From the IMG/VR virus record IMGVR_UViG_2534681651_000007, positions 1 through 36,506 of that record: a DNA stretch of 36,506 nt, one strand, 5' to 3'. Below the pieces are notes generated by a model. The model saw nothing but the letters and a program-made list of their open reading frames with translations. It was not told the DNA's origin and ran no database searches. The number at the start of each line of letters is the position of its first letter. The stretch's first letter is position 1. Positions 5,644-8,989 of the stretch are shown piece after piece. The DNA comes from a virus (lineage: Duplodnaviria > Heunggongvirae > Uroviricota > Caudoviricetes). The position numbers were made by a program, and so were the translations under genes.

Positions 5644-5802
5644 TTATGGCGATACCAGAGAGCTTTCTGCGTGTACATGCGTCTCTGTAACTTGCTCTCC
5701 TTCACTGTGGTTGCAAGTGACATGAATATCTCCTTCGTTACCGATTAAATCTTTCATCTGACGAATGAATTCTTCGTCTGACCAGTTATCTGTAAAACTC
5801 AT
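5644..5802 (-). CDS. Small hypothetical protein (52 aa, MSFTDNWSDEEFIRQMKDLIGNEGDIHV...)
   Basis: Manually translated ORF whose ATG overlaps the kil stop (ATGA). Confidence 0.4.
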   Translation of the reverse strand: MSFTDNWSDEEFIRQMKDLIGNEGDIHVTCNHSEGEQVTETHVHAESSLVSP

Positions 5803-5951
5803 TTCCTGCGATACCACGGAAGGTTGATAGCTGATTTCATCGCTTTATTTGCTTCAAGCCACATTTTTGAATCACCAATAAATCTGGCTATTACTGCTTT
5901 GTTCTGTGTAGCACGAAGCATCTGGTGATTAATGGCTATTTCATTGCGCAT
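5799..5951 (-). CDS. kil: Kil-like host cell-division inhibitor (50 aa)
   Basis: Manually translated: MRNEIAINHQMLRATQNKAVIARFIGDSKMWLEANKAMK...; the segment QNKAVIARFIGDSKMWLEA resembles recalled lambda Kil (QTKFTIATFIGDEKMFREA); overlaps cIII 3' end as in lambda. Start could instead be the internal Met at 5921. Confidence 0.6.
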   Translation of the reverse strand: MRNEIAINHQMLRATQNKAVIARFIGDSKMWLEANKAMKSAINLPWYRRK

Positions 5952-6070
5952 AACGCCTCCAGTTGTTTCTTTGCTGCTCTGATTAATTGTTTAACTCGGC
6001 GTGATAATTCAGATTCGTGCGGGTAGAAAGCGGACATGACGCCGCTACCCGCGAGCTGAAAGTGCATCAT
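5936..6070 (-). CDS. cIII: CIII-like FtsH (HflB) protease inhibitor (44 aa)
   Basis: MMHFQLAGSGVMSAFYPHESELSRRVKQLIRAAKKQLEAL... parallels recalled lambda CIII (MQYAIAGWPVAGCPSESLLERITRKLRDGWKRLIDIL...); AAGGAG Shine-Dalgarno 6 nt upstream of the ATG at 6070. Confidence 0.7.
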   Translation of the reverse strand: MMHFQLAGSGVMSAFYPHESELSRRVKQLIRAAKKQLEALCAMK

Positions 6071-6153
6071 GGGTAACTCCTTATATTTGATTGCATAACG
6101 AAAATGCCTCTCGTGAAGCATTATTGGTATGCGGTAAAGCCGCGCTCAGGCGG

Positions 6154-6402
6154 CTACTCTATTTCTTCTTCGAATGATTTTATTAGTCGGTCAATAACAT
6201 CATCCGTTTCAATATCATTTCCGTCTGATTGCTTTAATACATCTATTGATTCTGCAGCGGTAAATTCCATCGCTGTGAGAAACTCGACAATTGCACACTC
6301 AACGACATATCGTTCTTCATCTGTACGACATGAGATAAAAGAGCATTTAATTGCTGTTATTACTTTTTGTTTAAGTTCTGCAGGATAATCAGTTTTTATC
6401 AT
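6154..6402 (-). CDS. Acidic 82-aa hypothetical protein (C-terminus ...DGNDIETDDVIDRLIKSFEEEIE)
   Basis: ORF with GGAG Shine-Dalgarno; strongly net-negative composition; sits between cIII and the terminator, a slot that holds ral/ea genes in lambda. Confidence 0.75.
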   Translation of the reverse strand: MIKTDYPAELKQKVITAIKCSFISCRTDEERYVVECAIVEFLTAMEFTAAESIDVLKQSDGNDIETDDVIDRLIKSFEEEIE

Positions 6403-6413
6403 CGTTTACTCCG

Positions 6414-6443
6414 TTAAAAAAACTGCCCTCACATTGGAGGGCA
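6414..6443 (-). terminator. Rho-independent terminator (stem TGCCCTC/GAGGGCA, 6-nt loop, T7 run on the minus strand)
   Basis: Minus strand reads TGCCCTCCAATGTGAGGGCAGTTTTTTT; positionally analogous to lambda tL1. Confidence 0.7.
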
Positions 6444-6586
6444 AAGAAGATTTCCAATAATCAGAACAAGTCGGCTCCTGTTTAGTTACGAGCGACATTG
6501 CTCCGTGTATTCACTCGTTGGAATGAATACACAGTGCTGTATTTATTCTGTTATTTATGCCAAAAGTAAAGGCCGAATATTCGGCT

Positions 6587-6775
6587 TCATTCCTCAAACT
6601 TAATCTCTGCTATTTCCCGGTCACCATCGCAAAACAGGTAAGATTCATGGAACTGGTTTATAAATGAAATTATTCTTTCAATTTTAATTAGCGAATATTT
6701 CTGCTCTAATGGGTTATGCGGCTTAAACGAAGCACAGTCCAGAATCGCAGAATTGTATAAGATCCATTTGTGCAT
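6587..6775 (-). CDS. Possible small protein (62 aa from the ATG at 6775)
   Basis: AT-rich ORF; overlaps the 3' end of the upstream gene by about 50 nt; weak ribosome-binding site. Low confidence. Confidence 0.35.
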   Translation of the reverse strand: MHKWILYNSAILDCASFKPHNPLEQKYSLIKIERIISFINQFHESYLFCDGDREIAEIKFEE

Positions 6776-7580
6776 TTTTACCACCACTAGGTGTTAGTGG
6801 TGCCTCAGATAGTGGAACGCCATATTTAGTAAGCCACAAATGAGGCCACTTCATTTGTATCTCTTTTTCATGCTGACATGCTCTTTCAAAATCAGATGGG
6901 ACGTTATTTTTCATATAAAGCCACAGATCATCATCTCTGTTAGGGCACATCCAGCAAAGCGAGGCAGGTGGTGTAGGAAGACCATAATCCTCGACACATT
7001 GAATTGCCATCTGTTTAGTCATTAGCATTTCAATAAGTGGATAGCGCCTCTGCCACTTGCCAGTTGGGTATTTCGCTCTTCGTTTAGCCTCTTCAATGCT
7101 TATCCCCATCCAACTATCCACTCCTCTTGCTGTAAGATACTTCTCTCCATATCTTTCATTTAAAAATCTCTGAATAACTTCAGTTTTCCACTTTATAGAA
7201 CAAAATGCTGGTTGCTTTCCAGCGCACATTCCTTTTGAATCCCTTCCCTCGTATTCTGTGAAATATCCAGGTAGAGGAACGTCTGGATCAGGCCCATCAA
7301 TGTCGTAGGTAGCAAATCTACTTTTAGGAACAATCAGGTAATCAACACCCATATCTTCACAAATAGGAGCTATATATTTTTTCTGATATTCAAATACATT
7401 ACTTGCCTCACGTTCTGTATCTGACATAACGATAATGTCAGGCTTTGGAAGAACGCCAGCATGTACTAAGCAGATTATTGCGTTACTTTGAGTCCCACCA
7501 CCGGAAGAAATAACATTTAGTCTTTCTGGATTATGCTTGAATTCTCTTCTTGGTATGAATTTACTTGTAAATCCTGGCAT
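6723..7580 (-). CDS. PP-loop / PAPS-reductase-like family protein (285 aa), accessory gene downstream of N
   Basis: N-terminal glycine-rich motif NVISSGGGTQSNAIICL resembles (not canonically) the SGGxDS PP-loop of PAPS reductase/ATP-pyrophosphatase enzymes; several Cys pairs near the C-terminus; AAGGAG Shine-Dalgarno; lower GC than flanks. Family assignment is inference. Confidence 0.5.
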   Translation of the reverse strand: MPGFTSKFIPRREFKHNPERLNVISSGGGTQSNAIICLVHAGVLPKPDIIVMSDTEREASNVFEYQKKYIAPICEDMGVDYLIVPKSRFATYDIDGPDPDVPLPGYFTEYEGRDSKGMCAGKQPAFCSIKWKTEVIQRFLNERYGEKYLTARGVDSWMGISIEEAKRRAKYPTGKWQRRYPLIEMLMTKQMAIQCVEDYGLPTPPASLCWMCPNRDDDLWLYMKNNVPSDFERACQHEKEIQMKWPHLWLTKYGVPLSEAPLTPSGGKNAQMDLIQFCDSGLCFV

Positions 7581-7581
7581 G

Positions 7582-7713
7582 TTATCTCCTTGTCTTTACA
7601 ATTTGATAATCCTGACCTGTTTGTTTTGCGTATTGCTCAGCCTGTTCTTTTGTTTTGAAAGAGTTTCCGCAAACCCATCTACCGCAACTTCTGTATTGAA
7701 TTTGGTAGCTCAT
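7582..7713 (-). CDS. Small Cys-containing protein (43 aa, MSYQIQYRSCGRWVCGNSFKTKEQAEQYAKQTGQDYQIVKTRR)
   Basis: Manually translated; ATG 4 nt after the N stop with GAGGGG Shine-Dalgarno; its stop lies 1 nt before the downstream gene's ATG. Confidence 0.5.
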   Translation of the reverse strand: MSYQIQYRSCGRWVCGNSFKTKEQAEQYAKQTGQDYQIVKTRR

Positions 7714-7716
7714 ATC

Positions 7717-8022
7717 TCACCCCTCATACAGTGGTTTGCTGCCTAATTTAATTTTCTGGCGACCAACACAAGTCACACCCATTTCACTCCGTGGCTTGCG
7801 GTAGTAAATACGGTTCTGTTTACGCTCGACTTCTTCTACCTTCTTGCAGCGAAGGCTTCCGAGTGATGCTGCTTTATCTGCCCTGACGCAACCAGAGAAC
7901 TTTAGCGCAATCTTTCGTGCCAATCGCTGTTCTTGCATTGCCTGTTCACGTTGAGCCTGTCTGCGTTCTCTGCGGCGATTTCTGGCGTTATCGTCAGCCA
8001 GATATGTAATGACTACTGTCAT
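7717..8022 (-). CDS. N: N-type transcription antiterminator
   Basis: Arg-rich N-terminus (DDNARNRRRERRQAQREQ); C-terminus YYRKPRSEMGVTCVGRQKIKLGSKPL resembles recalled lambda N (WYSKPGERGITCSGRQKIKGKSIPLI); GGAGG Shine-Dalgarno; downstream of pL/nutL. Confidence 0.88.
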   Translation of the reverse strand: MTVVITYLADDNARNRRRERRQAQREQAMQEQRLARKIALKFSGCVRADKAASLGSLRCKKVEEVERKQNRIYYRKPRSEMGVTCVGRQKIKLGSKPLYEG

Positions 8023-8309: not shown

Positions 8310-8341
8310 AAAGGAAAGAAAAAAGGGGCGAATGCCCCTTA
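8310..8341 (-). terminator. Terminator after the repressor gene (stem GGGGC/GCCCC, loop GAAT/ATTC, T6 on the minus strand)
   Basis: Minus strand reads AAGGGGCATTCGCCCCTTTTTT; hairpin includes the repressor stop codon. Confidence 0.6.
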
Positions 8342-8989
8342 TGGAAGGTTTGCTATTTTTGCATCGACAACTACACCGATGATTTTGCAGTTCCCGTTGA
8401 TCTCAATCATCGGATATTGTGGGTTAAGTGGTTTTAGAAACCTTCTGCCAGCATCAATAACTAACTTCTTGAAAGTTGCCTCGTTTTCTCCTTCGAGCTT
8501 TGCCACTACCAGCTTCCCATTACGAGGTTCTACTTCAGGATCGACTAGTATTATCATCCCTTCCGGGATGCTAAGACCGGCTGGAGCCGTCATCGAATCA
8601 CCCTTTACGTCCAGCCAAAACGAATCTTCTGAACAATCTACGGTTGTATCGTACCAGTTATCTATTGCACGCTTATGATATGGCTCTACAGCTTCCATCC
8701 AACATCCTGCGCTTACCCAACTAATTAGAGGATACGAACCTCTTGGATCATGCCTGCTGTGATAGGCAATGTTTGAAAGACTATCTTCTCCTTTCAACAA
8801 GTAATCAGGGGAGCACTGCAAAGCCTTGGCTAAGGCCAATAGGTTTTCGCCATTGGGCTCAGTTTCAGAACGCTCCCATTGGGAAATAGCAACATTAGAC
8901 ACGCCAACCATCTTGCCAAGGGCAGCCTGCCTAATTTTGAGTTCTTTTCTGCGAGCGCGAATACGCTCACCCATCAGTTGTGTATTCAT
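8339..8989 (-). CDS. c2: Prophage repressor, P22 C2 type (LexA-like autocleaving CI family)
   Basis: 216-aa ORF MNTQLMGERIRARRKELKIRQAALGKMVGVSNVAISQWERSETEPNGENLLALAKALQCSPDYLL... matching recalled P22 c2; HTH N-domain and S24-like C-domain; divergent from cro. Confidence 0.95.
   Translation of the reverse strand: MNTQLMGERIRARRKELKIRQAALGKMVGVSNVAISQWERSETEPNGENLLALAKALQCSPDYLLKGEDSLSNIAYHSRHDPRGSYPLISWVSAGCWMEAVEPYHKRAIDNWYDTTVDCSEDSFWLDVKGDSMTAPAGLSIPEGMIILVDPEVEPRNGKLVVAKLEGENEATFKKLVIDAGRRFLKPLNPQYPMIEINGNCKIIGVVVDAKIANLP

Follow-up and report, generated by a model that had tools for sequence, protein, structure and literature searches.

What does a protein resembling a 3'-phosphoadenosine-5'-phosphosulfate (PAPS) reductase do in the earliest lytic operon of a lambdoid phage? 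Few viral "metabolic" genes are reported as often as phage "PAPS reductases", and no agreed role for them emerges from the literature surveyed. The question is raised here by IMG/VR record IMGVR_UViG_2534681651_000007, a P22/lambda-type prophage of 36,506 nucleotides which was analyzed over its whole length ("the window"). This lambdoid prophage of E. coli is easily accessible to genetics, and it encodes such a protein in the operon that is expressed first in the lytic cycle. Its genes run leftward on the minus strand from the side of the C2/CI-type repressor. The antiterminator gene N is followed by a small open reading frame (ORF) of 43 codons (orf43), the gene of a 285-aa protein referred to as the enzyme in the following, a second small ORF (orf66) and, further downstream, an acidic 82-aa ORF. 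An initial annotation made from the sequence alone had proposed these four ORFs as a candidate anti-defence or modification module; the ORFs were found on the minus strand at the stated coordinates, and the motifs SSGGGTQS and CGRWVCG were confirmed. In our best reading the 285-aa protein is an orphan that belongs, within the PAPS-reductase (PP-loop) superfamily, to the SspD/DndC branch. It is carried by a rare mobile three-gene insert consisting of orf43, the enzyme gene and orf66. This cassette probably helps incoming DNA to escape host defences, because genes of this kind lie next to anti-restriction genes in phages and on plasmids.

We confidently predict a PP-loop/PAPS-reductase fold for the 285-aa protein, in agreement with the initial annotation. 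The protein matches PHROG 424 ("PAPS reductase") with an E-value of 4.7e-35. Its AlphaFold2 model consists of a single domain (predicted local distance difference test, pLDDT, 90.3; predicted template modelling score 0.86), with only the last approximately 15 residues being of low confidence. The model has a Rossmann-like alpha/beta fold with a Gly-rich loop following strand 1 at the start of helix 1, as is characteristic of the PP-loop superfamily. A single-sequence search of the PDB with the 285-aa protein returned noise only, and an hhalign comparison with E. coli CysD yielded no useful alignment (probability 3%).

The family as such is scarcely covered by general domain collections. The 285-aa protein has no Pfam match at E≤0.1 and no NCBIfam match; among its relatives Pfam PF01507 is matched weakly by five out of 39 (best E-value 0.002) and the NCBIfam PAPS reductase model PRK02090 by two out of 63 family members (E-value 0.0014). 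The sole defence model in PADLOC which the family matches is that of SspD (PDLC02782), an ATP pyrophosphatase resembling PAPS reductases which in SspABCD phosphorothioation is encoded together with the nickase SspB, the ATPase SspC and usually SspA. This match is partial for the 285-aa protein itself (residues 120-252, E-value 3.1e-7), and extends to 62 of the 63 aligned members, the best of them at 2.7e-24, several covering profile positions 2 or 3 to approximately 220 of 277. The family is also similar to SspD in size, and the known binding of SspD to SspA has its parallel in a structure entry considered below. It differs from SspD in that no SspA, SspB or SspC genes are found nearby, and in that it resides on phages and plasmids and not in defence islands. 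With DndC, a PP-loop [4Fe-4S] enzyme of DndABCDE phosphorothioation, the 285-aa protein shares the superfamily and, as far as can be judged from sequence, the pattern of three cysteines plus a separate Cys pair. Unlike DndC, the family has no DndD/DndE neighbours, and the PADLOC DndC models matched none of the 63 members at E≤0.01. The protein is also much shorter than the BrxP-type fusions.

The key features of the enzyme are the loop SSGGGTQS (S25-S32), D54-T55-x-x-E58, C127-x4-K132, G159/E164/R168, C209-x-x-C212-P213 and C278/C283. Across 63 homologues down to approximately 26% identity the residues G27, G29, Q31, E58, P104, C127, K132, G159, E164, R168, P181, S207, C209, C212, P213, C278 and C283 are invariant, and Q31 is likewise invariant in a second alignment of 39 sequences. 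The PP-loop consensus of ATP pyrophosphatases is SGGxDS, with an Asp at the position that is occupied by this Gln. If the protein is aligned with E. coli CysH by hhalign (probability 65%), SSGGGTQS corresponds to SSSFGIQA and DTEREA to DTGYLFPE. The loop Gln thereby falls on the Gln of CysH, which binds PAPS without ATP hydrolysis. As the Gly-x-Gly-x-Gln loop is invariant, the description of the protein as "ATP-utilising" in the initial annotation is therefore uncertain. The cysteines form a candidate pattern of their own, with one core Cys (C127), a CxxC (C209/C212), and C278/C283 on the low-confidence tail. The pLDDT of this C-terminal tail lies below 50, and we predict it to be flexible.

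One could regard the enzyme as a true APS (adenosine-5'-phosphosulfate) or PAPS reductase that boosts the supply of sulfite and cysteine during phage growth, in keeping with the way in which phage PAPS reductases are usually read, as an "auxiliary metabolic gene". A core Cys, a CxxC and further cysteines on a flexible C-terminal tail are indeed shared with APS reductase. The profile matches given above speak against such a function, since the 285-aa protein does not match PF01507 at all and its relatives stay below the Pfam and NCBIfam thresholds. The C-terminal catalytic motif of CysH is ECG(L/I)H, whereas the enzyme ends in FCDSGLCFV (CDSGxCF; family consensus C-x-S-G-x-C-F). In addition, E. 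coli already possesses CysH. The early or establishment context on mobile elements, with the gene as first cargo after N and behind ArdC on plasmids, points elsewhere, as does the anti-Dnd precedent discussed below. Even a preprint that adopts the metabolic reading calls it puzzling. We consider such a metabolic function very unlikely.

A hint towards the mechanism arises from the PDB, in which the family profile matched one chain, 21fy_C, named "PptA" (E-value 1e-4); by sequence profile PptA is thus the nearest relative of solved structure, and it retains the conserved core, as do the plasmid homologues considered below. In hhalign the family and PptA are related with a probability of 95.5% and an E-value of 1.5e-8 over 147 columns. 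A tblastn search with the fragment from the PDB alignment identified the origin of PptA as Vibrio phage vB_VhaP_VH-5, a lytic T7-like phage in which it is a stand-alone protein of 250 aa whose gene comes right behind that of the phage RNA polymerase (locus L088, 4734-5486). PptA is like the 285-aa protein in standing alone, in its size of approximately 250 aa, in the order of S-x-G loop, C-x4-K, CxxC and C-terminal Cys pair (ECSLVC), and in matching the SspD profile. It is unlike the 285-aa protein in overall sequence (approximately 16-20% identity), in its loop (FSCGAPS vs SSGGGTQS) and in belonging to a lytic T7-like phage. A PDB search with E. coli IscS found the identical sequence in just two entries, 1p3w and 21fy; therefore, 21fy holds both IscS and the phage PptA. 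By analogy, we infer that the 285-aa protein may bind IscS. The IscS-PptA entry fits the reports that SspD pulls down its cysteine desulfurase SspA (PMC7188994) and that DndC, with three 4Fe-4S cysteines and a separate proposed sulfur-carrying Cys dyad, depends on DndA/IscS (PMC10853773). No paper describing 21fy or the phage PptA was found in the literature searched. The PptA gene is followed by an unannotated ORF of 100 aa that looks hydrophobic by sequence (L088, 5497-5799).

The joint presence of a phage homologue and E. coli IscS in 21fy could also be explained by a decoy. The enzyme would then be a dominant-negative look-alike of SspD/DndC which ties up IscS or the Dnd/Ssp partners of the host and shuts down host phosphorothioation, tRNA thiolation or Fe-S supply, without catalysis on phage DNA. 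For a pure binder it is hard to explain that the loop, E58, K132, E164, R168, the three core cysteines and the C-terminal pair remain invariant at approximately 26% identity, even though the loss of the PP-loop Asp and a stand-alone gene without the partners needed by known phosphorothioation would suit a protein of this kind. Moreover, blocking new host modification would presumably not shield an unmodified incoming genome from DndFGH/SspE in the short term. Taken together, we regard a pure decoy as unlikely.

The family is very large. At E≤1e-3 a profile search of 1.84 billion representatives yielded 7112 proteins; at the stricter E≤1e-30 it yielded 1778, this number referring to clusters at 50% identity. 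Among the 150 best matches listed, nearly all are 240-300 aa long and matched along their whole length. The gene lies among early, replication or nin-type genes, as seen in 80 loci from IMG/VR and in several annotated phages, mostly temperate ones. No conserved neighbour was found in the 80 viral loci, and nothing was enriched among 150 neighbouring genes surveyed with Pfam; neither this survey nor an all-against-all clustering of the ORFs from 86 loci revealed a universal partner gene. The gene thus stands alone without a conserved partner, which makes it dependent on factors of the host.

On 160 plasmids we found homologues that are distant (24-30% identity) yet match over the full length; 103 of these plasmids belong to Agrobacterium and 69 are typed as conjugative. 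The plasmid homologues keep S25, G27, E58, C127, K132, G159, E164, C209, C212, C278 and C283. Eight plasmid contexts (L094-L101) were examined. In five of them a gene of the ArdC family or for an ArdC-type zincin directly precedes the homologue, and in four (pTi-SAKURA, 59445-61309; Mesorhizobium; Roseibium; Ancylobacter) the two genes overlap by stop and start codon. A ParB/RepB/Spo0J-family gene adjoins the homologue in four out of eight contexts, three of these being large (617-704 aa) and one of 114 aa (Streptomyces). Genes for DUF736, SSB, thermonuclease and TraG are found in the vicinity. Experiments have shown that ArdC counteracts restriction and does so in the recipient cell (PMC7213743). 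A paper pairing ArdC with a PAPS reductase was not found in the literature searched. In a Serratia marcescens prophage (L005/L006, 4202-6858) an enzyme gene 77% identical to the present one is preceded by genes for a ParB-HTH (helix-turn-helix) protein of 271 aa, a ParE-like protein of 72 aa, and an unclassified protein of 251 aa whose gene is tightly coupled. The ParB-HTH pairing recalls the ParB-like/PAPS-reductase pairings on plasmids. As conserved partners these three genes were rejected, for they are lineage-specific to Serratia prophages.

This genomic company is centred on DNA (ArdC, ParB-like, SSB, Dam and recombination genes), which argues against a further explanation, namely that the enzyme thiolates RNA in the manner of TtuA, TtcA or Ncs6. 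Such a tRNA thiolase could tune translation or make tRNAs resist host anticodon nucleases. The motifs DT-x-x-E, C-x4-K and S-x-C-x-x-C-P are those of the PAPS-reductase/SspD branch and not of TtuA/TtcA, and the profile matches are confined to PAPS reductase and SspD. Neither the SGGKDS PP-loop nor a match to the family profiles of TtuA, TtcA and Ncs6 was found in the 285-aa protein. TtuA has flanking zinc fingers, for which the single-domain model offers no counterpart, no dedicated motif search having been made. We therefore judge a tRNA thiolase to be quite unlikely.

The slot directly after N is a cargo hotspot, as the initial annotation supposed; other prophages carry other genes there. 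The insert spans approximately 6589-7716: prophages with other cargo align with the window up to 6574-6588 and then again from 7711, and the right edge of the slot is the stop codon of N. At the DNA level it was found in two out of 5426 complete E. coli genomes and in none of 50,697 phage records, and the exact 285-aa protein is present on 319 contigs of a large protein collection. Its left edge is a lambdoid "boundary sequence" which is common to 325 phage records at 93-98% identity, occurs in 2237 out of 5426 complete E. coli genomes, and is annotated in Sf6 as "bsq4; boundary sequence | terminator". The cassette (6572-7716) has a GC content of 39.4% compared to a median of 47.9% in stretches of equal size from the window (rank 21 out of 708), which bears out the low GC noted in the initial annotation. 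In two relatives, L011 and L016, a hairpin lies at the same place past orf66, with a different stem in each of the three loci. Between N and the boundary sequence, other E. coli prophages (L091, L092) were observed to carry a gene for a Nmad5-family "putative nucleotide modification protein", a hypothetical protein of 83 aa, or a DUF7446 gene.

Since the cassette occupies the cargo slot straight after N, its transcription from pL would set in once N has been synthesized. From gene order and known lambdoid biology, its genes would be expected to act in lytic growth and not in the lysogen. This bears on the possibility that the cassette is a prophage-encoded defence which guards the lysogen against other phages by superinfection exclusion or modification-based immunity. 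The stretch between N and cIII in lambdoid phages does carry exclusion genes such as sieB, and both SspD and DndC belong to defence systems. However, the pL operon is silenced by the repressor in lambdoid lysogens, and no internal promoter is prominent in the region (four promoter-like sites compared to 5.8 expected). There is also no restriction or sensor partner nearby, and homologues are found in lytic phages as well as among establishment-type genes on plasmids. We hold a defence of the lysogen to be highly improbable.

Starting from the observed fold, conserved residues, family placement, mosaic cargo position and genomic company of the 285-aa protein, we tentatively propose an orphan SspD/DndC-like Fe-S sulfurtransferase which takes sulfur from the host IscS to thiolate nucleic acid, most plausibly the phage's own DNA, as a counter-defence. 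We regard this function as possible, at somewhat less than an even chance. The enzyme might hold a [4Fe-4S] cluster on C127, C209 and C212 and dock on the host cysteine desulfurase IscS. The flexible C-terminal pair C278/C283 could accept the persulfide, and a nucleotide-dependent thiolation of nucleic acid would follow. The likeliest target would be the phage's own DNA, with phosphorothioation or a related sulfur mark as the product. As an outcome, replicating and packaged genomes may escape modification-dependent restriction of the Dnd/Ssp/BREX-4 type or similar.

In the literature, PAPS-reductase-like genes of phages have been pointed out before as candidates for anti-defence functions. A phage-specific gene pair, one gene of which encodes a PAPS-reductase domain fused to Dam, gave escape from host Dnd (10.1101/2021.05.05.442762), and PAPS reductases are present in Aca-regulated anti-defence operons (PMC13551039). 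Like the 285-aa gene, p0018 from the anti-Dnd locus of Vibrio phage 44E38.1 (Piel et al.) is a phage-borne gene with a PAPS-reductase domain in a variable region, and its transfer enabled a phage to multiply on a host with Dnd. A role in anti-defence or modification, which the initial annotation had favored, is the best-supported reading because of this anti-Dnd precedent, the coupling to ArdC genes on plasmids, and the structure of a distant homologue solved in complex with IscS.

Several observations weigh against the proposed sulfurtransferase. Known phosphorothioation needs ATPase and nickase partners (PMC12914056), and neither DndD/DndE nor SspB/SspC was found near any member examined. 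Within the window the operon holds N, orf43, the enzyme gene and orf66, then cIII, kil and recombination genes, with no linked SspB or SspC. The replacement of the PP-loop Asp by an invariant, CysH-like Gln leaves an ATP pyrophosphatase activity not assured. The relation to PptA is distant, as the hhalign values given above indicate. Finally, p0018 is a Dam fusion of 479 aa which was transferred along with another gene and is absent from the tblastn matches of the enzyme.

The value of the locus lies in a family which escapes Pfam, is very large, recurs beside ArdC on conjugative plasmids, and is linked to the IscS-PptA structure. Together these properties suggest that a counter-defence or DNA-marking activity dependent on host IscS is widespread among mobile elements. 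If true, many annotations as "auxiliary metabolic gene" would need correcting, and a sulfur-based arm would be added to the anti-restriction strategies of phages and plasmids. A bolder and rather doubtful extension is that the enzyme represents a minimal, self-contained sulfur-modifying enzyme of mobile elements. One protein of approximately 280 aa would then hijack IscS and write a phosphorothioate or another sulfur mark on phage or plasmid DNA, incoming or in replication, without ATPase or nickase partners, as a general establishment function of phages and conjugative plasmids, and orf43 and orf66 might supply targeting or regulation.

Table 1. Features around the enzyme cassette, ordered in the direction of transcription (window positions).
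Feature	Position	Strand	Remarks
C2/CI-type repressor gene	8989..8339	minus	right of N
Antiterminator N	8022..7717	minus	PHROG 271 at 1.4e-37; weak Pfam N_peptide match
orf43 (43 aa)	7713..7582	minus	ATG 4 nt past N stop
285-aa enzyme gene	7580..6723	minus	ATG 1 nt past orf43 TAA; AAGGAGA just upstream
orf66 (66 aa from GTG start; 62 aa from ATG at 6775)	6787..6587	minus	overlaps 3' end of enzyme gene
Terminator-like hairpin (GCCGAATATTCGGC plus T-rich tail)	6585-6572	minus	directly past orf66 stop; closes cassette
Lambdoid "boundary sequence"	6409..6588	minus	includes second terminator-like hairpin, 6444-6423; mosaic joint between modules
Acidic 82-aa ORF	6402..6154	minus	PHROG 14587 at 2.2e-48, label "anti-restriction"
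cIII	6121..5936	minus	Pfam cIII, E-value 4.6e-30
kil	5951..5799	minus	Pfam Lambda_Kil, E-value 6.8e-20
Recombination and SSB genes			downstream of kil

The features of the locus are compiled in Table 1. The co-occurrence of the four ORFs was checked among relatives of the enzyme, and the linked module of the initial annotation was not confirmed: orf43 and orf66 accompany the enzyme only in its closest relatives, and the gene of the acidic protein has no tblastn match beside the enzyme in six out of seven close relatives (L001, L007-L010, L012). The four ORFs are not one module, because the acidic gene occurs without the enzyme in some phages and the enzyme without the acidic gene in others. 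Both terminator-like hairpins and the boundary sequence separate the enzyme cassette from the acidic ORF. An Rfam search of the region returned no RNA family.

The pattern of substitutions indicates that orf43 is a real gene. Compared to L011 it shows 19 nucleotide differences which are distributed over the codon positions as 2/0/17, corresponding to 16 synonymous and two non-synonymous codons. The encoded protein is basic (isoelectric point, pI, 9.6) and matches PHROG 15891, a family of unknown function; orf43 shows translational coupling with both of its neighbours, N and the enzyme gene. The copy that precedes the enzyme in L016 has 56% identity and has lost both cysteines of CGRWVCG (SNGAWQNG), so that this motif, noted in the initial annotation, is not conserved. 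Homologues of orf43 with 44-60% identity exist in lytic podophages of Pectobacterium, Erwinia, Pantoea, Klebsiella and Edwardsiella, none of which is among the phage matches of the enzyme. In CB5, the sole podophage context examined, the homologue lies within the first 2 kb of the genome. An upstream small ORF of Vibrio phage 434O48-1 was tested and is not homologous to orf43. The 90%-identity protein cluster that holds orf43 also lists proteins of 505 aa (P0270, P0272). We rejected these as orf43 fusions: P0270, the one examined, is unrelated in sequence and represents a clustering artefact. On the opposite strand a 69-aa antisense ORF (7537-7746, plus strand) spans orf43 and is present in all close relatives. 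It recurs because the coding sequence on the other strand is conserved, and nothing marks it as a gene.

For orf66 the signal is similar, and it is probably a real small gene. In its non-overlapping part the differences by codon position are 5/5/17 (L011) and 12/7/24 (L016), with the position of the stop codon kept and the conservation confined to the last approximately 45 residues. The counterpart in L016 is an ORF of 49 aa with an in-frame ATG that overlaps the stop codon of the enzyme gene (GTATGA). No homologue of orf66 was found in the phage collection and no family match, and its exact sequence was never called as a gene in a collection of 15 billion proteins. Judged by their codon patterns, both small genes appear to be under purifying selection as facultative, dispensable companions of the enzyme.

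The acidic 82-aa gene is a separate, neighbouring mosaic block and represents unrelated cargo, not a part of the enzyme cassette. The protein is identical in HK446 and ECP1, and Kapi1 matches the same DNA at 97.5%; none of these three phages was found to carry the enzyme cassette. Conversely, the relatives L001, L010 and L012, which carry the enzyme, align with the window only from 6405-6409 rightwards and have another gene in place of the 82-aa ORF (TolA-like in L001). The suggestion that the protein might be a DNA-mimic inhibitor found no support. It has 20 acidic and nine basic residues (pI 4.27), and net negative charge alone is not diagnostic of a DNA mimic. No match was obtained in Pfam, NCBIfam or PADLOC. 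The AlphaFold2 model consists of four helices, is of moderate confidence (pLDDT 73.5) and was built from a shallow alignment, so that the lack of a PDB fold match below E=1 is uninformative. A word-index search with the protein returned near-identical sequences only, and BLASTP found no similarity to lambda Ral (E=16). The label "anti-restriction/ral" is attached to the family in PHROG 14587, ECP1 and several RefSeq phage records; no basis for it was found in the sequence, and it may be a propagated positional guess. Relatives with 35-42% identity are encoded by lytic Salmonella and Klebsiella phages of 36-49 kb. In L011, a prophage with an enzyme 93% identical to that of the window, an acidic protein of 81 aa with 34% identity to the 82-aa protein is encoded further downstream (6470-6715), which makes L011 the only relative with both the enzyme and the acidic-protein families.

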